From: Escherichia coli O157:H7
GTDB lineage: Bacteria > Pseudomonadota > Gammaproteobacteria > Enterobacterales > Enterobacteriaceae
Assembly (NCBI RefSeq): GCF_013167455.1
Contig: NZ_CP038328.1
DNA length: 64,000 nt
Strand: one strand, 5' to 3'
Shown one piece after another: positions 24,422 through 63,770 of this stretch. The first letter of the stretch is position 1, and the number at the start of each line of letters is the position of its first letter. The notes beneath the pieces were generated by a model. It saw only the letters and a list, made by a program, of their open reading frames with translations, was not told the origin of the DNA and did not search any database. A program made the translations under genes and the position numbers.

Positions 24422-24577
24422 TAAAAGGTGTGTTACAGGGCAGAAATTTACTGCCCCGTATCATTGGATGAGCGCAAAGAGAATGACCGGTTTGTGAATG
24501 TAATTTTATGAATTTAAATGGTTTTATCTTTCAGTAGAAACCTGAAACGTTCATCAAACACTAAGGTTATTTCCTCA

Positions 24578-24606
24578 AGGGCAGATTCTTTTCTGCCCTT
24601 TTTTAG
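24578..24606 (+). terminator. Rho-independent terminator downstream of fruA
   Basis: agggcag-attcttt-tctgccct followed by ttttt. Confidence 0.65.
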
Positions 24607-24844
24607 TGTTCATGTTCTGTGCATCCCGTCACAAATTCCTCGCTTTTGTAATTCAGGCATTTAATCGCATTTTGTGAGCCTGCTCAAATCTGCCCGCTTT
24701 GCCTCTCTGGCGGCAATTTACTTTACGTAAAACATGCATACTATGAGCACATGTTTAAATATGAACACATGTTTAAACCGTCTTTGCAGTATCTATATCC
24801 TTGTGGATTGACAGGGTTGGTAATTTTTTACCAGAGGACGTGCT

Positions 24845-25786
24845 ATGCGCGAAAAGGATTATGTCGTAATTATAGGCTCGGCGAATATTGATGTCGCCGG
24901 ATATTCACATGAATCATTAAATTATGCGGATTCAAATCCAGGTAAAATAAAATTTACGCCTGGTGGGGTAGGGCGCAATATTGCACAAAACCTGGCGTTG
25001 CTGGGTAATAAAGCCTGGCTACTGAGCGCCGTAGGCAGTGATTTTTATGGCCAATCGCTGCTAACGCAAACCAATCAATCTGGCGTTTATGTCGATAAAT
25101 GCCTGATTGTGCCGGGAGAAAATACGTCGAGCTATTTATCATTACTCGATAATACCGGTGAAATGCTGGTTGCTATAAATGACATGAATATTAGCAACGC
25201 TATTACAGCTGAATATCTCGCACAGCACCGTGAATTTATTCAGAGGGCAAAGGTCATTGTCGCGGACTGTAATATCAGTGAAGAGGCACTGGCATGGATT
25301 CTGGATAATGCTGCCAACGTACCCGTATTTGTCGATCCGGTTTCCGCGTGGAAATGCGTCAAAGTACGCGAGCGATTAAGTCAAATCCATACTCTCAAGC
25401 CAAACCGCCTTGAAGCGGAAACCCTGAGTGGGATTGCGCTGTCAGGGCGTGAAGATGTGGCAAAAGTTGCTGCCTGGTTCCATCAACATGGCCTGAACCG
25501 ACTGGTATTGAGCATGGGCGGCGACGGCGTTTATTACAGCGATATCAGCGGTGAAAGTGGCTGGTCTGCGCCGATCAAAACCAATGTTATTAATGTTACC
25601 GGAGCGGGCGATGCCATGATGGCGGGACTTGCTTCGTGTTGGGTAGACGGAATGCCGTTTGCCGAATCTGTTCGTTTCGCACAGGGATGTTCGTCAATGG
25701 CGCTCTCCTGTGAATACACCAATAACCCCGATTTATCGATTGCCAACGTTATATCGTTAGTGGAGAACGCAGAATGTCTGAATTAA
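24845..25786 (+). CDS. psuK: Pseudouridine kinase (PfkB family)
   Basis: 313-aa ORF MREKDYVVIIGSANIDVAGYS...; overlaps psuG by 13 bp. Confidence 0.9.
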   Translation: MREKDYVVIIGSANIDVAGYSHESLNYADSNPGKIKFTPGGVGRNIAQNLALLGNKAWLLSAVGSDFYGQSLLTQTNQSGVYVDKCLIVPGENTSSYLSLLDNTGEMLVAINDMNISNAITAEYLAQHREFIQRAKVIVADCNISEEALAWILDNAANVPVFVDPVSAWKCVKVRERLSQIHTLKPNRLEAETLSGIALSGREDVAKVAAWFHQHGLNRLVLSMGGDGVYYSDISGESGWSAPIKTNVINVTGAGDAMMAGLASCWVDGMPFAESVRFAQGCSSMALSCEYTNNPDLSIANVISLVENAECLN

Positions 25787-26712
25787 AAATTTCCCCTGAA
25801 TTATTACAAATTTCCCCGGAAGTGCAGGACGCTTTAAAAAACAAAAAACCGGTTGTGGCGCTGGAATCGACCATTATTTCTCACGGGATGCCGTTCCCAC
25901 AAAATGCCCAGACCGCAATTGAAGTAGAAGAAACTATTCGTAAACAGGGCGCAGTACCTGCCACTATCGCCATTATTGGCGGCGTGATGAAAGTGGGTTT
26001 AAGCAAAGAAGAAATTGAATTACTGGGTCGTGAAGGGCATAACGTGACTAAAGTTAGTCGTCGCGATTTACCTTTTGTCGTTGCCGCAGGAAAAAATGGT
26101 GCAACCACCGTGGCTTCAACGATGATTATTGCGGCGCTTGCCGGAATTAAAGTATTTGCCACCGGCGGAATTGGTGGTGTTCATCGAGGGGCGGAACATA
26201 CCTTCGATATTTCTGCCGATTTGCAAGAACTGGCAAATACTAATGTCACCGTTGTTTGTGCCGGGGCGAAATCTATTCTCGATTTAGGATTAACCACTGA
26301 GTATTTAGAAACCTTCGGTGTGCCGTTAATTGGCTATCAGACTAAAGCGCTACCTGCGTTTTTCTGCCGTACCAGCCCGTTTGACGTCAGCATTCGTCTC
26401 GACAGCGCCAGTGAAATTGCCCGTGCAATGGCGGTGAAATGGCAAAGCGGGCTGAACGGTGGCCTCGTGGTAGCGAACCCGATCCCGGAACAGTTTGCGA
26501 TGCCAGAACACACTATCAATGCGGTGATCGATCAGGCGGTAGCTGAAGCTGAAGCGCAGGGTGTTATTGGTAAAGAAAGTACGCCATTCCTGCTGGCGCG
26601 CGTTGCTGAGCTGACCGGCGGTGACAGCCTGAAATCCAACATCCAGCTTGTGTTCAACAACGCCATTCTGGCGAGCGAAATTGCCAAAGAATATCAGCGT
26701 CTCGCGGGTTAA
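25774..26712 (+). CDS. psuG: Pseudouridine-5'-phosphate glycosidase
   Basis: 312-aa ORF of the IndA/YeiN family. Confidence 0.9.
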   Translation: MSELKISPELLQISPEVQDALKNKKPVVALESTIISHGMPFPQNAQTAIEVEETIRKQGAVPATIAIIGGVMKVGLSKEEIELLGREGHNVTKVSRRDLPFVVAAGKNGATTVASTMIIAALAGIKVFATGGIGGVHRGAEHTFDISADLQELANTNVTVVCAGAKSILDLGLTTEYLETFGVPLIGYQTKALPAFFCRTSPFDVSIRLDSASEIARAMAVKWQSGLNGGLVVANPIPEQFAMPEHTINAVIDQAVAEAEAQGVIGKESTPFLLARVAELTGGDSLKSNIQLVFNNAILASEIAKEYQRLAG

Positions 26713-26805
26713 TTTCTGACGGGCAGAAAGCCGTCGCCCGTACTCATCAAACATACCGAAACCTGGCGCTGACGCCGGGTTTACTGGCATGAAGGGAAAA
26801 TCATT

Positions 26806-28056
26806 ATGGACATAATGAGAAGTGTTGTGGGGATGGTGGTGTTACTGGCAATAGCATTTCTGTTGTCAGTGAATAAAAAGAGCATCAGTTTGCGTACGGT
26901 TGCAGCCGCACTACTGCTGCAAATTGCTCTTGGTGGCATCATGCTCTATTTTCCGCCGGGAAAGTGGGCTGTAGAACAGGCGGCATTAGGCGTTCATAAA
27001 GTGATGTCTTACAGTGATGCTGGTAGCGCCTTCATTTTTGGTTCGCTGGTCGGGCCGAAAATGGATGTCCTCTTTGACGGTGCGGGTTTTATCTTCGCCT
27101 TTCGCGTACTTCCGGCGATTATCTTCGTCACTGCGCTCATTAGTCTGCTGTACTACATTGGCGTGATGGGGCTGCTGATTCGCATCCTTGGCAGCATTTT
27201 CCAGAAAGCCCTCAACATCAGCAAAATCGAATCTTTTGTCGCAGTCACCACTATTTTCCTCGGGCAAAATGAGATCCCGGCGATCGTTAAACCGTTTATC
27301 GATCGCATGAATCGAAACGAGTTGTTTACGGCTATTTGTAGCGGGATGGCGTCCATTGCTGGTTCGATGATGATTGGTTATGCCGGAATGGGCGTACCAA
27401 TTGACTACCTGTTGGCGGCATCGCTGATGGCGATCCCCGGCGGTATTTTGTTTGCACGTATTCTTAGTCCAGCAACCGAGCTTTCGCAGGTCACGTTTGA
27501 AAATCTGTCGTTCAGCGAAACGCCGCCAAAAAGCTTTATCGAAGCAGCGGCGAGCGGTGCGATGACCGGGCTGAAAATCGCCGCTGGTGTGGCGACGGTG
27601 GTAATGGCATTTGTGGCAATTATTGCGCTGATCAACGGCATTATCGGCGGAATTGGCGGCTGGTTTGGCTTCGCCAATGCTTCTCTGGAAAGTATTTTTG
27701 GCTATGTGCTGGCACCGCTGGCGTGGATCATGGGTGTGGACTGGAGTGATGCCAACCTTGCGGGTAGCCTGATTGGGCAGAAACTGGCGATTAACGAATT
27801 CGTCGCTTACCTGAGTTTCTCCCCATACCTGCAAACGGGCGGCACGCTGGAAGTGAAAACCATTGCGATTATCTCCTTTGCGCTTTGTGGTTTTGCTAAC
27901 TTTGGTTCTATCGGTGTTGTCGTTGGGGCATTTTCGGCTATTTCGCCAAAACGCGCACCGGAAATCGCTCAGCTTGGTTTACGGGCGCTGGCAGCAGCAA
28001 CGCTTTCCAACCTGATGAGCGCGACCATTGCCGGGTTCTTTATTGGTCTGGCGTAA
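26806..28056 (+). CDS. psuT: NupC-family nucleoside (pseudouridine) transporter
   Basis: 416-aa CNT-family ORF, close paralog of the ORF at 29996-31246. Confidence 0.9.
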   Translation: MDIMRSVVGMVVLLAIAFLLSVNKKSISLRTVAAALLLQIALGGIMLYFPPGKWAVEQAALGVHKVMSYSDAGSAFIFGSLVGPKMDVLFDGAGFIFAFRVLPAIIFVTALISLLYYIGVMGLLIRILGSIFQKALNISKIESFVAVTTIFLGQNEIPAIVKPFIDRMNRNELFTAICSGMASIAGSMMIGYAGMGVPIDYLLAASLMAIPGGILFARILSPATELSQVTFENLSFSETPPKSFIEAAASGAMTGLKIAAGVATVVMAFVAIIALINGIIGGIGGWFGFANASLESIFGYVLAPLAWIMGVDWSDANLAGSLIGQKLAINEFVAYLSFSPYLQTGGTLEVKTIAIISFALCGFANFGSIGVVVGAFSAISPKRAPEIAQLGLRALAAATLSNLMSATIAGFFIGLA

Positions 28057-28065
28057 TGCTCAATT

Positions 28066-28106
28066 TGTAGACCGGATAAAACGCATCAAGCGTTGCATCC
28101 GGCAAT
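28066..28106. repeat. REP-like palindromic element downstream of psuT
   Basis: accggataaaacgcatcaagcgttgcatccggc, inverted ccggat/atccgg arms. Confidence 0.55.
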
Positions 28107-28126
28107 CGCGCTATTGCAAATAATTT

Positions 28127-28786
28127 TTACTGCATCATCCCGGAGAATTTATTCTCCGGGTCCATCTCCAGTGCCAGCCCTGACAACTGCTTTCTGTTTT
28201 TAATTAGATATCCTTTCTTGCTTTTAATTAATAAACCGTCGTGAATGAATTGCGCGAGAACATATAAAAGATGTCGATAAGAAACGCCTAAATACTCTGC
28301 CGCTTGCGTATGCTTTTCGTGATAAAGATCACCTTCTTGTGAGAGTAATATAAATGCTGCCAGGCGATTCACTAACGGAAATGATTGATTCTGAGTTAAA
28401 GAAACAATATTACGATAATTTTTATGACTTAAGGTGACGCAAAGTTTTCGTAAAAATAGGGTGTCGTTTAATAACAGCGGACGGTAATGTTTCATAGGGA
28501 GCGCAAGGCACCAACACTCTTCAATAGCCTGTACCGCACGCGGTTCATGGTCTTTATCGATTAACTCAATCTCACCAATAAAACAGGGGGCGGCAAAGAA
28601 ATCGATCAGCGACACGCGACCATTAGCTAGCGTGGCGTAAAGCCTGGCGCGGCCTCGCGTCAGGTAAAACAGCCAGGACGGCTGTTGCCCTTCCTGCACA
28701 ATGTAGTCACGCGCTAAAAAATGAAACAGCCGCGTATCGGCTGAAACATCCGTTAAAAAGCAATCCTTAAACGCGGATTCACTCAT
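28127..28786 (-). CDS. yeiL: CRP/FNR-family transcriptional regulator YeiL
   Basis: 219-aa product from [10 protein letters not shown]; cNMP-binding-like domain plus C-terminal HTH; 13-codon upstream extension in the track ORF. Confidence 0.85.
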
Positions 28787-28954
28787 CAATTGCTGCTTAA
28801 GATCATTATTGTGGATTTCTTTCACGATGTTTATCCGCTATGAGATTTCTCATATTTAGCATACGTACGCTGTTGTTAAGATTCAATCATCGGCCCGATC
28901 GAAATTTCTTTGCTGTAGAAAAAATAACGCAACTGGAAACAGAGGAAATAAACA

Positions 28955-29896
28955 ATGGAAAAGAGAAAAATTATTCTGGATTGTGATCCGGGTCATGATG
29001 ATGCTATTGCTATAATGATGGCGGCGAAACATCCGGCAATAGATTTATTAGGCATCACTATTGTAGCGGGTAATCAGACGCTTGATAAAACATTAATTAA
29101 TGGCCTGAATGTTTGCCAGAAACTGGAGATTAATGTTCCGGTTTATGCGGGGATGCCACAACCCATTATGCGGCAACAAATCGTTGCCGATAATATTCAC
29201 GGTGATACCGGACTGGATGGCCCGGTATTCGAGCCGCTGACCCGCCAGGCAGAAAGCACTCATGCGGTGAAATACATCATTGATACCCTGATGGCAAGCG
29301 ATGGCGATATCACTCTGGTGCCGGTTGGTCCGCTTTCAAATATCGCGGTGGCAATGCGTATGCAACCCGCGATCCTGCCCAAAATCCGTGAAATTGTGCT
29401 AATGGGCGGCGCTTACGGTACAGGCAACTTCACGCCATCTGCCGAGTTCAACATCTTTGCTGACCCGGAAGCCGCACGCGTGGTGTTCACCTCTGGCGTT
29501 CCATTAGTGATGATGGGCCTCGATCTCACCAACCAGACCGTTTGCACCCCGGACGTGATTGCACGAATGGAAAGGGCAGGCGGCCCTGCCGGAGAGCTGT
29601 TCAGCGACATCATGAACTTCACTCTCAAAACCCAGTTCGAAAACTACGGCCTGGCTGGCGGCCCGGTGCACGACGCCACCTGCATCGGTTATCTGATTAA
29701 CCCTGATGGCATTAAAACCCAGGAGATGTACGTCGAAGTGGACGTCAACAGTGGCCCTTGTTATGGGCGTACCGTCTGCGACGAGCTGGGCGTTCTTGGC
29801 AAGCCCGCTAATACCAAAGTCGGCATCACTATTGATAGCGACTGGTTCTGGGGCTTAGTCGAAGAGTGCGTGCGCGGCTACATCAAAACCCATTAA
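28955..29896 (+). CDS. rihB: Pyrimidine-specific ribonucleoside hydrolase
   Basis: 313-aa ORF with DCDPGHDD nucleoside hydrolase signature. Confidence 0.9.
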
Positions 29897-29995
29897 GTGT
29901 TGATAACAAGCCGGGCCGGTATCGCAAGATGCAGGCCTGGCTATTTCTGATGGGCAGAAAGCCGTCGCCCAATATGACATGAAGAGATAATCACT

Positions 29996-31246
29996 ATGGA
30001 TGTCATGAGAAGTGTTCTGGGAATGGTGGTATTGCTGACGATTGCGTTTTTACTGTCAGTAAACAAGAAGAAGATCAGCCTGCGTACCGTTGGCGCGGCG
30101 TTAGTGTTACAGGTCGTGATTGGCGGCATTATGCTTTGGTTACCGCCAGGGCGTTGGGTCGCTGAAAAAGTCGCTTTTGGTGTGCATAAAGTGATGGCGT
30201 ACAGCGACGCGGGTAGCGCATTTATCTTCGGTTCTCTGGTCGGACCGAAAATGGACACCTTATTTGATGGCGCAGGATTTATCTTTGGTTTCAGGGTATT
30301 ACCGGCAATTATCTTCGTCACTGCACTGGTGAGTATTCTCTACTACATCGGTGTGATGGGGATTTTAATTCGCATTCTCGGCGGTATATTCCAGAAAGCA
30401 TTAAATATCAGCAAGATTGAGTCATTCGTCGCGGTCACTACCATTTTCCTCGGGCAAAACGAAATTCCGGCGATTGTGAAGCCCTTTATCGATCGGCTGA
30501 ATCGCAATGAATTATTTACAGCGATTTGTAGCGGCATGGCCTCGATTGCTGGTTCGACAATGATTGGTTATGCCGCACTGGGCGTGCCTGTGGAATATTT
30601 GCTGGCGGCATCGTTAATGGCGATCCCCGGGGGGATCTTGTTTGCCCGCCTGCTAAGCCCGGCTACGGAATCTTCGCAGGTTTCTTTTAATAACCTCTCT
30701 TTCACCGAAACACCGCCAAAAAGCATTATTGAAGCCGCCGCGACAGGGGCAATGACCGGGCTGAAAATCGCCGCAGGTGTGGCGACAGTAGTGATGGCAT
30801 TCGTCGCCATCATTGCGTTAATTAACGGTATTATCGGCGGCGTTGGCGGCTGGTTTGGTTTTGAACATGCCTCGCTGGAGTCCATTGTAGGTTATCTGCT
30901 GGCCCCACTGGCGTGGGTAATGGGTGTTGACTGGAGTGATGCGAATCTTGCCGGGAGTTTGATTGGACAGAAACTGGCAATAAATGAATTTGTCGCTTAT
31001 CTCAATTTCTCACCCTATCTGCAAACGGCTGGCACTCTGGATGCTAAAACCGTGGCGATTATTTCCTTCGCGTTGTGCGGTTTCGCTAACTTTGGTTCTA
31101 TCGGGGTGGTGGTGGGGGCGTTTTCTGCGGTTGCGCCACACCGTGCGCCGGAAATCGCCCAGCTTGGTTTACGCGCGCTGGCGGCGGCGACACTTTCTAA
31201 CCTGATGAGTGCCACCATTGCCGGGTTCTTTATTGGTTTAGCGTAG
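29996..31246 (+). CDS. nupX: NupC-family nucleoside transporter
   Basis: 416-aa ORF, highly similar along its full length to the psuT product. Confidence 0.9.
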   Translation: MDVMRSVLGMVVLLTIAFLLSVNKKKISLRTVGAALVLQVVIGGIMLWLPPGRWVAEKVAFGVHKVMAYSDAGSAFIFGSLVGPKMDTLFDGAGFIFGFRVLPAIIFVTALVSILYYIGVMGILIRILGGIFQKALNISKIESFVAVTTIFLGQNEIPAIVKPFIDRLNRNELFTAICSGMASIAGSTMIGYAALGVPVEYLLAASLMAIPGGILFARLLSPATESSQVSFNNLSFTETPPKSIIEAAATGAMTGLKIAAGVATVVMAFVAIIALINGIIGGVGGWFGFEHASLESIVGYLLAPLAWVMGVDWSDANLAGSLIGQKLAINEFVAYLNFSPYLQTAGTLDAKTVAIISFALCGFANFGSIGVVVGAFSAVAPHRAPEIAQLGLRALAAATLSNLMSATIAGFFIGLA

Positions 31247-31260
31247 TGTGCGATTTATGA

Positions 31261-31295
31261 GCCGGATAAGATGCGGTCAAGCGTCGAATCCGGCA
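31261..31295. repeat. REP-like palindromic element downstream of nupX
   Basis: gccggataagatgcggtcaagcgtcgaatccggca. Confidence 0.55.
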
Positions 31296-31301
31296 ACATT
31301 G

Positions 31302-32390
31302 TTACACCATTGGCACTAATGAAAGCGCGTTATCGGCAGACAGGGTAGGGTTGTTTAAGCTGCCGCTGGCGCGTGAAATTGCCGCGCAGGCCATCGCAAA
31401 ACGGGCGCTGTCACGGAAATTGTTTCCTTCCAGAAAGCTATATACCAGGCCCGCCATAAAACCATCGTCAGCACCAAAACTGTCTACTGTCGTATGCGCT
31501 GGTGCGGTCAGCAAAAATTGTTCTCCATCCTTTTCGCTGCAATAAACTGACTCATCGGGCAAATAAACAAACAGTTGCTGAACACCTTGCTGATGCAACG
31601 CATTCACTGCAGCATTACGGTCAGCATCGCTGGTGATCGCCTGTCCCCATAAAATTTCCAGCTCCGGTAAAGTGGGTTTCAGGGTGTGAATATGCGCCAG
31701 CCAGTGTTTGATTTTGCCCGCTTTGAATTCTGAAACGGTATCGACAAACACCGGGATCTCACCAGCGAGGGTAAAGACCCATTCCAGCGCCTCGGCTGTC
31801 AGGTTGCAATCAGCCAGTACCACGCCCGCATGACGAAGTAAATCGCGCGACCCGTTCAATAATTGCGGCGATAACTGTTCCAGCAGATGGGTATCGTTAA
31901 TCGCCAGCACGGTTTCATCGTCTCGATTGGCAATTGCCAGATACGTCGATGTGCTTTGACCATGTAAACGAACGCAGCCGGAGACATTCACGCCGGCGCG
32001 GCGCGTTTCTTCCAGGAGCATTTCGCCATAAAAGTCATCGCCAATCACTGAAAGCAAATGGACGTCACGGCCTAACAGCGCCAGATTGTGGGCGATGTTG
32101 CGTCCCACGCCGCCCGCTGAGCAATGAATTGTACCGGGATGAGAAGCCGATTGCGGGTAACGGATATCCGCCATCCCGCGAATATCCATATTGATTGTCC
32201 CCACCACTACGCAGTATTCCTGCTCGGTGAGAATGTAACCTTTGCCTTTAATCCGGCCTTTGCGCATTAAATCCATAATATGCGCCGCAACGCGCGAACG
32301 GCTGATTTGCAGCATGTCCGCAATTTCGTTCTGCTGAATCAGCGGGTTACGCCGTAAAATTGCAAGGATCTCCTTTTCCCGGTTATTCAT
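31302..32390 (-). CDS. yeiI: HTH-domain-containing PfkB-family sugar/nucleoside kinase YeiI
   Basis: 362-aa ORF with N-terminal HTH and PfkB kinase domain paralogous to PsuK. Confidence 0.88.
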   Translation of the reverse strand: MNNREKEILAILRRNPLIQQNEIADMLQISRSRVAAHIMDLMRKGRIKGKGYILTEQEYCVVVGTINMDIRGMADIRYPQSASHPGTIHCSAGGVGRNIAHNLALLGRDVHLLSVIGDDFYGEMLLEETRRAGVNVSGCVRLHGQSTSTYLAIANRDDETVLAINDTHLLEQLSPQLLNGSRDLLRHAGVVLADCNLTAEALEWVFTLAGEIPVFVDTVSEFKAGKIKHWLAHIHTLKPTLPELEILWGQAITSDADRNAAVNALHQQGVQQLFVYLPDESVYCSEKDGEQFLLTAPAHTTVDSFGADDGFMAGLVYSFLEGNNFRDSARFAMACAAISRASGSLNNPTLSADNALSLVPMV

Positions 32391-32392
32391 CT

Positions 32393-33250
32393 TCAGGCTA
32401 CCGCTTTTTCAGTTTGTTGCGCTTTCAGCCAGGCGATCTCTTCTGCCCAGATATCCGGGTTGATGGTTTCGAGGATCAGCGGAATGCCGTCGAAACGGTC
32501 GTCCTGCATGATCCAGCGGAACGCATCATGACCGATATTGCCTTCACCGAGGCTATGATGGCGGTCAACGCGGCTGCCAAAGGTGCTTTTCGCATCGTTA
32601 AGGTGCATCCCGCGCAGATACTTAAAGCCGACAGTACGGGCAAAATCCGCGAATGTTTTCTCGCATTCGGCTGGAGTACGCAAATCATACCCGGCAGCGA
32701 AAGCATGGCAGGTATCAATGCAGACGCCGACGCGGGATTTATCTTCCACGCCGTCGATAATCGCCGCGAGATGTTCGAATTTAAACCCTAAGTTACTGCC
32801 CTGACCGGCGGTGTTTTCTATCACCGCTGTCACACCTTGAGTTTTATCCAGCGCAATGTTGATGGATTCGGCAATACGCGCAAGGCAATCCTCTTCTGAA
32901 ATCTGCATCAGATGGCTGCCAGGGTGGAAGTTGAGCAAAGAAAGCCCCAGCTGTTCGCAACGCTGCATTTCATCTATAAAGGCATCGCGCGATTTTTCCA
33001 GAGCTTCAGTGACCGGATGTCCGAGGTTAATCAGATAACTGTCGTGGGGAAGAATTTGCGCCGATGTGTAGTGATATTTTTCACAGGCGGCTTTGAATTC
33101 ATCGATGGTTTGCGTCGTGAGCGGTGCGGCACGCCACTGACGTTGGTTTTTGGTGAACAAGGCAAACGCGGTTGCGTCGATTTCGGCGGCGCGAATTGCG
33201 GCATTTGCCAGACCGCCAGCAGCACTAACGTGCGCTCCAATGTATTTCAT
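32393..33250 (-). CDS. nfo: Endonuclease IV (AP endonuclease)
   Basis: 285-aa [24 protein letters not shown]..., xylose-isomerase-like TIM barrel. Confidence 0.93.
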
Positions 33251-47383: not shown

Positions 47384-47565
47384 GTGGTTTTGTAGGCCGG
47401 ATAAGGCGTTCACGCCGCATCCGGCGACAGGAGCCAAATGCCGGATGCAACGCTGGCGCGTTTTATCCGGCCTGCAATGAGCTCAACATACTGATTTGTA
47501 TGGTTTTGTAGGCCGGATAAGGCGTTCAAGCCGCATCCGGCGACAGGAACCAAATGCCGGATGCG
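47384..47565. repeat. BIME-type cluster: two near-identical ~64-bp REP-containing units spaced ~117 bp apart
   Basis: tggttttgtaggccggataaggcgttca(c/a)gccgcatccggcgacagga(g/a)ccaaatgccggatgc occurs at 47384-47448 and 47501-47564. Confidence 0.75.
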
Positions 47566-50235: not shown

Positions 50236-52231
<1,996 letters not shown>

Positions 52232-63684: not shown

Positions 63685-63770
63685 TTGGTAGGCATGATAA
63701 GACGCACAAGCGCCGCATCAGGCATGGTGAACCGGATGTCGGATGCGGCGCGCACGCCTTATCCAGGGCA
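63685..63770. repeat. Pair of REP elements (BIME) between yohF and yohD
   Basis: ggcatgataagacgcacaagcgccgcatcaggcatg and ccggatgtcggatgcggcgcgcacgccttatccagg in inverted orientation. Confidence 0.65.

Follow-up and report, generated by a model that had tools for sequence, protein, structure and literature searches.

The presence of REP elements after the genes of Escherichia coli has been textbook knowledge since the 1980s, and roles in mRNA stability, attenuation and translation have been published for them. PMC12306157 states that REP hairpins stabilise mRNA and attenuate transcription; it cites Newbury 1987, Merino 1987, Khemici & Carpousis 2004 and Espeli 2001 for the blocking of PNPase and RNase II by REPs, and it refers to Liang et al. 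2015 both for the stalling of ribosomes by REPs that lie <16 nt from a stop codon and for the estimate that about half of the catalogued E. coli REPs are found within 15 nt of a stop codon. REPIN/BIME-like units are thought to be mobilised by TnpA-REP (PMC3337134, PMC8266576), and for the E. coli TnpA-REP the GTAG tag is reported to be essential and to tolerate no mutation (PMC8266576). REPs have also been reported at recombination join-points (Shyamala 1990, as cited in PMC7661048), and the notion that REPs evolve by gene conversion is an old one, to judge from an entry in the reference list of PMC8266576 (Higgins 1988). The kind of element, the location and the presumed roles that are the subject of this report are already known; the tail-exchange polymorphism described below is a small new detail.

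The DNA segment studied here (the window; the whole stretch of 64,000 nucleotides that was analysed) is part of an O157:H7-type E. coli chromosome, since a 4.7-kb query was 100% identical in megablast searches to several O157 genomes in which psuT, yeiL, rihB, nupX and yeiI are annotated. Open reading frames and annotation give the gene order psuK, psuG, psuT, yeiL, rihB, nupX, yeiI, nfo (see the table for coordinates). The two transporter genes psuT and nupX are NupC-family paralogs that are 78% identical at the nucleotide level and 88% at the amino acid level in a pairwise alignment, with 51% identity at third codon positions, and their homology also reaches upstream of the coding sequences into a shared leader. 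The REPs that follow them are presumably catalogued in EcoCyc/GenBank; the MG1655 RefSeq feature table lists no repeat_region features.

Table. Features of the psuT-nupX region; positions are those of the window unless a locus is named.
Feature	Position	Strand	Basis
psuT (yeiM) CDS, CNT-family nucleoside transporter, 416 aa	26806..28056	+	ORF, annotation
24-nt run identical in psuT and nupX, psuT copy (CDS 1219-1242)	28024..28047	+	longest identical run in gene
psuT 3' tail dimorphism loci	window 28040-28126; L097, L098 3620-3720; L100 4520-4620		alignment
REP1 5' flank TGCTCAATTT, abuts the psuT stop codon	28057..28066	+	sequence; 11-nt flank with last stop base
REP1: GTAG tag (28067-28070) plus 33-nt imperfect palindrome, between convergent psuT and yeiL	28067..28104	+	sequence, fold, pattern
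yeiL, convergent with psuT; stop codon 23 nt from REP1	28127..28786	-	ORF, annotation
rihB, upstream partner of nupX	28955..29896	+	ORF, annotation
nupX (yeiJ) CDS, psuT paralog, 416 aa	29996..31246	+	ORF, annotation
24-nt run identical in psuT and nupX, nupX copy	31214..31237	+	paralog comparison
REP2 5' flank TGTGCGATTT plus degenerate tag ATGA (31257-31260) in place of GTAG	31247..31260	+	sequence
REP2: 34-nt imperfect palindrome, between convergent nupX and yeiI	31261..31295	+	sequence, fold, pattern
yeiI, sugar-kinase paralog of psuK, convergent with nupX	31302..32390	-	ORF, annotation

The 5' leaders of psuT and nupX contain a 23-nt hairpin of the form RYGGGC-AGnnnGCGGTC-GCCCRY (window 26719-26741 and 29950-29972, also 26759-26782) that is kept in psuT/nupX orthologues from nine genera, with compensatory stem changes from CG to UA and from GC to AU. 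In psuT-type leaders, a second hairpin comes next (AAACCTGGCG-CTGA-CGCCGGGTTT), which is terminator-like and part of a 41-nt segment that the E. coli nupX leader lacks. The 23-nt hairpin has no match in Rfam; it could be an attenuator, a riboswitch-like RNA or an operator, and beside the last of these options we note that homologues of yeiI possess HTH and PfkB domains.

A preliminary description of this DNA reported REP-like palindromes after psuT and nupX, each within 20 bp of the stop codon, and this proved accurate: the stems begin 15 nt after the TAA stop codon of psuT (28054-28056) and 14 nt after the TAG stop codon of nupX (31244-31246), the REP2 hairpin being at the same time only 7 nt away from the stop codon of yeiI. 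The palindromes read ACCGGATAAAACGCATCAAGCGTTGCATCCGGCA in REP1 (28071-28104) and GCCGGATAAGATGCGGTCAAGCGTCGAATCCGGCA in REP2 (31261-31295), and they are followed by AATCGCGC and ACATTG, respectively. Both elements have the same orientation, are of the same hybrid type, and their offsets from the stop codon are equal within 1 nt. A strict REP pattern (CCGGATAA-N8-24-ATCCGGC) has five matches in the window and none in 100 dinucleotide shuffles of it. Of the family arms GCC(G/T)GAT...ATC(C/A)GGC, those of REP2 (31261-31294) are exact, and those of REP1 (28071-28103) have one mismatch (A for G), the outermost position of its stem being an A-C mismatch. On the sense strand, both elements are predicted to fold into a two-tier RNA hairpin with an outer stem CCGGAU/AUCCGG, a 2x2 bulge and an inner stem of 5 bp (REP1, centroid of -16.6 kcal/mol, z -2.1; REP2, -21.9 kcal/mol, z -3.6), and the opposite strand folds as well in each case. 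The bulge is AA/GC in REP1; REP2 has AA/GA in the O157 window strain, as opposed to AA/GC in its K-12 and E. albertii counterparts.

A scan of the two intergenic regions (28057-28126 and 31247-31301) for intrinsic terminators returned no site, and no T-run follows either hairpin. A strict reading of REP1 and REP2 as terminators was therefore dropped. From the suggestion made in the preliminary description that the two elements probably act as mRNA 3' stabilisers or terminators, the role of a 3' hairpin is retained as an expectation that is backed by the literature (PMC12306157), while that of an intrinsic terminator, which calls for a hairpin plus a T-run, is not.

Both elements are confirmed as true REPs, and within the enterobacterial REP family they are ordinary. 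For comparison, a background set of 38 further REPs was drawn from the window and eight 50-kb pieces of the K-12 chromosome (400 kb), about 464 kb of DNA in which 40 REP copies were found altogether. Against this background, REP1 and REP2 show the arms, the AA/GC bulge, the length and the extragenic location between convergent genes that are characteristic of the family. No single canonical type (y, z1, z2) fits them, since they combine y-type CCGG arms with a z2-like core in a palindrome of 33-34 nt; in REP1, for example, a z2-like inner stem is joined by the AA/GC bulge to CCGG arms. The combination of CCGG arms and z2 core recurs just once among the 38 background REPs (window 47440-47471). 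In Rfam, the sole match of REP1 and REP2 is to naRNA4/REP325 (RF02564), the only REP-derived model in that database; with 31.3 and 19.6 bits versus a gathering threshold of 59.5, the matches are below threshold and cover one hairpin, with REP1 (31.3 bits) aligned to the z2 hairpin of the model. Further REPs in the window comprise a BIME cluster of three (y, hybrid, y; 47396-47541) and singletons at 51310-51339 and 63692-63723.

The GTAG tag is present in 32 of the 38 background REPs and in REP1. In REP2 of the window strain, ATGA takes its place; E. albertii and many E. coli strains share this ATGA, K-12 carries GTAG, and the alleles of K-12 and of a divergent E. coli (L002) read GTAG or GTTG. 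REP2 of the window strain lacks the GTAG tag and is therefore predicted to be inert for TnpA-REP; it is probably an immobile fossil.

The location of REP1 and REP2 next to stop codons is nothing special for REPs. Of the 18 REP clusters facing the end of a gene in the 400-kb K-12 sample, eight lie equally close, that is within 20 nt of a stop codon, and four lie within 15 nt of it. The cores of the two elements are likewise uninformative with respect to their history: their identity is 0.79, a value reached or surpassed by 36% of all REP pairs sampled, and the closest relative by core in our REP sample is the copy at window position 47440 for REP1 and a z2 copy near pepE for REP2. Because the two elements are not mutual nearest neighbours and their core identity is average, this measure cannot decide between common and separate origins.

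The DNA surrounding the cores is more telling. When the regions downstream of psuT and nupX are aligned, the homology of the coding sequences continues without a break past the stop codon and through the REP, interrupted by a single 1-nt indel in the loop, and ends at CCGGCAA; the flank plus REP of the two genes is 74-86% identical. The 15-nt linker between stop codon and stem was discarded as independent evidence of common ancestry, since GTAG and the T-rich stretch preceding it belong to the extended REP consensus. The remaining 11-nt flank, counted with the last base of the stop codon and without GTAG, is still unusually alike, and the shared-flank argument thus survives in a weaker form. 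It matches at 7 of 11 positions in the window strain and at 8-9 of 11 among the alleles, compared with a background mean of 2.9; 7, 8 and 9 matches are reached by 4.8%, 2.0% and 0.3% of background REP pairs, respectively. Rather than falling into different REP subfamilies without any similarity in their flanks, the two elements share both a rare hybrid subtype and much of the adjoining 11 nt. In the window strain, the 9 nt just before this flank differ at three positions (CTGGCGTAA versus TTAGCGTAG); hence, any conversion across the junction was not a recent one.

An analysis of the gene tails across E. coli and its relatives revealed a substantial polymorphism. The tail of E. coli nupX, REP2 and its flank included, is 96% identical to the tail of the single-copy psuT gene of E. 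albertii, versus only 74% to that of E. coli psuT. REP2 is orthologous to the REP that follows this E. albertii gene, and the E. albertii psuT type extends over the last two diagnostic sites of the nupX coding sequence and on through its stop codon and REP into the flank downstream. The psuT tail itself is dimorphic among 5,426 E. coli genomes: the window type (CTGGCG TAA followed by REP1) accounts for ~45% of them, and a second type, here called hap2 (TTAGCT TGA GTTTCATTGCCGGATG...GCTTATTAAGYGTTGCATCCGGCAATCGCGC), for ~55%. The left part of hap2 matches the K-12-type nupX tail (TTAGCT TGA GTGTCATTGCCTGATG...) at 24 of 26 positions, as counted by hand from the alignment, and its right arm and right flank remain psuT-specific. 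From its sequence, the hap2 REP looks like a BIME that has collapsed between its two REPs into a hybrid of both. In hap2 psuT of E. coli, as in E. albertii psuT, the switch from psuT-type to nupX-type sequence falls within the 24-nt run that is identical in both genes.

The nupX gene is equally variable at its 3' end. K-12 and ~23% of the complete E. coli genomes carry an extra z-type REP inside the last codon and stop codon of nupX (GCG TAG changed to GCT TGA), which turns the single REP at this site into an inverted pair (K-12, L001 5789-5896, corresponding to window 31244-31301). The divergent E. coli L002 possesses a 35-nt deletion derivative. In the same strain, a tract of ~110 nt within nupX (L002 7202-8452; CDS ~1083-1194) is identical to the strain's own psuT, which in sequence terms is clearly an ectopic gene-conversion tract.

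Two further observations concern individual alleles and the encoded proteins. E. coli ET734 (L099 4548-6065) has an IS1 element directly after the psuT stop codon and has lost REP1; the IS1 takes the place of yeiL, rihB and the 5' portion of nupX, of which a truncated pseudogene remains. The NupX entries of E. coli and Shigella range from 387 to 425 aa at about 93-99% identity (protein matches P0002-P0043), and REPs inserted or deleted at the stop codon may account for some of this variation in C-terminal length.

The interval between fruA and nfo is modular and polymorphic across the Enterobacteriaceae (window 24422-33250; loci L003-L006, L011, L082-L088, L101, L102). This survey comprises the genomes among the matches listed, a set without E. 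fergusonii, the majority of Salmonella and further Escherichia species. Only the psuK-psuG-psuT module, convergent with yeiI-nfo, is found in E. albertii, four Citrobacter genomes and K. michiganensis; for Citrobacter freundii, a PsuT protein and no NupX homologue have been described (PMC11241209). Only the module of yeiL and the divergent rihB-nupX genes is present at the fruA-nfo site in Leclercia, Buttiauxella and an assembly labelled 'Salmonella enterica', and K. spallanzanii has the rihB module elsewhere, between yeiW and setB. Kluyvera shares the gene order of E. coli, and E. hormaechei carries the two modules in the opposite order. Thus, psuG-linked and rihB-linked copies of the transporter gene are found together in Kluyvera, Enterobacter and E. 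coli. Because both gene types occur in several genera and because of the nucleotide and third-position identities given above (78% and 51%), the duplication that gave rise to psuT and nupX is, on sequence grounds, an old one. Neighbour-joining trees of 21 transporter genes, at both the nucleotide and the protein level, were star-like and mutually discordant, and they were left out of the polarisation of events.

Among the loci examined, a REP follows the transporter gene only in Escherichia, Citrobacter and the 'Salmonella' assembly (L084), with a half-REP in Superficieibacter. No REP was found after the transporter gene in Kluyvera and E. hormaechei (both copies), Leclercia, Buttiauxella, K. 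spallanzanii or K. michiganensis; these REP-less orthologues carry short GC-rich hairpins at the same spot, several of them with T-runs. The number of REPs between psuT and yeiI is 1, 1, 2, 1 and 4 in E. albertii and the four Citrobacter genomes, and in Citrobacter they occur in either orientation. In L084, the rihB-linked nupX gene has a REP 13 nt after its TAA stop codon that lacks the shared 11-nt flank. The Superficieibacter nupX gene (L011 5246-5290) is followed, 10 nt after its stop codon, by GCCGGATAAGGCG, an exact 13-nt left half of a y-REP that is embedded in a hairpin with a T-run (GCGCGCC-GGATAA-GGCGGGC-ACTTTTT); a decayed REP may have given rise to a terminator here.

On balance, we lean towards the view that REPs colonised the psuT-yeiL and nupX-yeiI intergenic regions after the gene duplication, and that the 3' tails of the two paralogs recombine and thereby copy REPs between them. 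REPs would have arrived in the Escherichia/Citrobacter lineage at spots that hold terminator hairpins in other genera, and the paralogous tails would then have recombined ectopically, by gene conversion or unequal crossover. For such an exchange, the left anchor could be the 24-nt run that both genes have in common where their coding sequences end, and the right anchor the right arm of the REP (CATCCGGCAA); one tail together with its REP would thereby be copied onto the other paralog. The two REPs would have their type, orientation, offset and flank in common because the paralog tails recombine. In favour of this proposal are the rare subtype and the similar flanks of the two REPs, the match between hap2 psuT and the K-12 nupX tail, the conversion tract of L002 and the E. 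albertii-like tail of E. coli nupX, as well as the fast turnover of REPs in this intergenic region, including the extra z REP of K-12; the unexceptional core identity of 0.79 counts against it. It should be noted that the TTAGCT-TGA-z-REP junction common to hap2 psuT and K-12 nupX could also result from two site-specific insertions of one element, and that an older association of REPs with these transporter genes is still conceivable in view of the REP material found after the rihB-linked nupX genes of L084 and Superficieibacter.

Among the alternative explanations, two separate landings without any later exchange fare best, although we regard them as rather unlikely. The equivalent positions would then reflect the general preference of REPs for sites just after stop codons, for which both our K-12 sample (8 of 18 clusters within 20 nt) and the proportion of roughly one half within 15 nt given in PMC12306157 can be cited; the varying number and orientation of REPs among E. 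albertii, the Citrobacter species and K-12 and the family-average core identity of the pair are consistent with this as well. What such landings do not readily account for is that a hybrid subtype seen in only 1 of 38 background REPs occurs twice in the same orientation and at an offset equal within 1 nt, that the likeness of the 11-nt flanks ranks in the top 0.3-5% of background pairs, and that tail haplotypes are common to psuT and nupX across the E. coli population. The equivalent positions noted in the preliminary description are confirmed; subtype, orientation, offset and flank speak against the fully independent insertion that it had offered as one of two possibilities.

It is less probable still, in our estimate, that REPs already existed in two parental loci, one of type A (psuKGT-REP-yeiI) and one of type B (yeiL-rihB-nupX-REP), and that a single recombination event in the 3' end of the transporter gene gave rise to the composite locus of E. 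coli and to an exchange of the tails. Single-paralog loci of both types do occupy the fruA-nfo site; in E. coli, nupX ends in the tail of type-A psuT, psuT ends in one (CTGGCG TAA) that is similar to those of type B, and L084 has a REP 13 nt after a TAA stop codon. However, this 11-nt flank is absent from the L084 REP, the composite order is found in Kluyvera with no REP at all, type A can be explained equally well by a deletion through recombination between psuT and nupX, and the direction of change is not polarised in the loci examined.

The other possibility raised in the preliminary description, a REP that already followed the ancestral transporter gene and was part of the duplication from which psuT and nupX stem, must be viewed as very improbable, even though coding sequence, stop codon and the whole of the REP form one unbroken stretch of homology, the shared 5' leader implies that the duplicated unit included non-coding flanks, and the nupX genes of L084 and Superficieibacter have REP material behind them. 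A duplication this old, with a third-position identity of 51%, should have randomised a neutral flank, yet flank and REP are still 74-86% identical; nor should it have left most lineages without REPs, as seen for both copies in Kluyvera and E. hormaechei and for the single copies in Leclercia, Buttiauxella and two Klebsiella species. The absence of REPs from both sites in most lineages with both paralogs is the trend so far, most loci outside Escherichia and Citrobacter carry hairpins that are not REPs, and the content of REPs at the site turns over within a species. Finally, that REP1 and REP2 are not REPs at all but chance palindromes or plain intrinsic terminators, for which the missing GTAG of REP2 in the window strain and the A-C mismatch in the outermost stem position of REP1 might be adduced, is effectively refuted by the absence of the REP pattern from shuffled sequence, the family-typical arms, bulge and length, the GTAG tag of REP1, the GTAG-bearing K-12 allele of REP2, the lack of a T-run after the hairpins, and the restriction of Rfam matches to the REP-derived naRNA4 model.

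With regard to function, a REP hairpin in the mRNA would be expected, by analogy with the family, to block 3'-to-5' exonucleases and thereby to define and stabilise the 3' ends of the psuT and nupX transcripts; on the opposite strand, it would offer the same protection to the yeiL and yeiI mRNAs, REP2 to that of yeiI in particular, and it may attenuate read-through into the convergent gene. Stems that begin 14-15 nt after the stop codon would fall just within the class reported to stall terminating ribosomes and to lower protein output. Both elements possess the features of REPs that stabilise mRNA or damp translation, namely hairpins of -16.6 and -21.9 kcal/mol at distances of 15 and 14 nt. 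By this analogy, we consider 3'-end protection of mRNA a likely function of REP1 and REP2 and a damping of translation a possible one. It is tempting to go further and to suppose that selection keeps the 14-15 nt placement, with the two REPs serving as matched post-transcriptional dampers or stabilisers, and that REP-anchored conversion is a general way in which paralogs keep the hairpins of their 3' UTRs in step; we offer this as a speculation in which we have little confidence.

The findings on this locus have little significance beyond bookkeeping, and their value as a worked example is modest. They illustrate that the position and the type of a REP can be common to paralogs through recombination of gene tails, and not through co-duplication or independent transposition. 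Furthermore, tails as strongly polymorphic as those found here (psuT, ~45% versus ~55%; extra nupX REP, ~23%) call for caution when REPs are used as markers of the history of a duplication.

When compared with known systems, REP1 and REP2 occupy the same spot as the hairpin-plus-T-run terminators that follow the orthologous genes in Leclercia, Enterobacter and Buttiauxella, but neither has a T-run, and the scan of both intergenic regions came back empty. REP1 resembles naRNA4/REP325 (RF02564) in that it aligns to the z2 hairpin of the model; as single hairpins that score 31.3 and 19.6 bits versus the gathering threshold of 59.5, the two elements are not a naRNA4 gene. The REPIN/RAYT (TnpA-REP) system finds its counterpart in the K-12 nupX allele, an inverted pair of a z-type REP and the REP2 homologue. 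In contrast, an inverted pair of the BIME/REPIN kind is present at neither site of the window, where the copies are singletons, and REP2, lacking GTAG, should not be a substrate of TnpA-REP.

The ribosome-stalling REPs, such as that of nrdAB (Liang, Rudd & Deutscher 2015), are similar in their distance from the stop codon, since the stems at our locus begin 14-15 nt after the psuT and nupX stop codons and 7 nt after that of yeiI; 14-15 nt is the edge of the reported <16 nt window, and the convention by which these authors count the distance may differ from ours. With the REPs that stabilise mRNA (malE-malF, gdhA) and with the attenuating BIMEs, the two elements share a hairpin in a 3' UTR or an intercistronic region. 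They differ from the stabilisers of the malE-malF/gdhA type by their location between convergent genes, where one hairpin could serve both strands. From the E. coli REPs (y, z1, z2) and BIMEs described to date (PMC8266576), REP1 and REP2 are set apart as hybrids of y arms and a z2 core that occur singly at each site without forming a BIME pair and, in REP2, without GTAG; with these same elements, they have in common the GTAG tag (in REP1), the GCC(G/T)GAT...ATC(C/A)GGC arms, the AA/GC bulge, a length of 30-37 nt, a place beside a stop codon and membership in a high-copy family.
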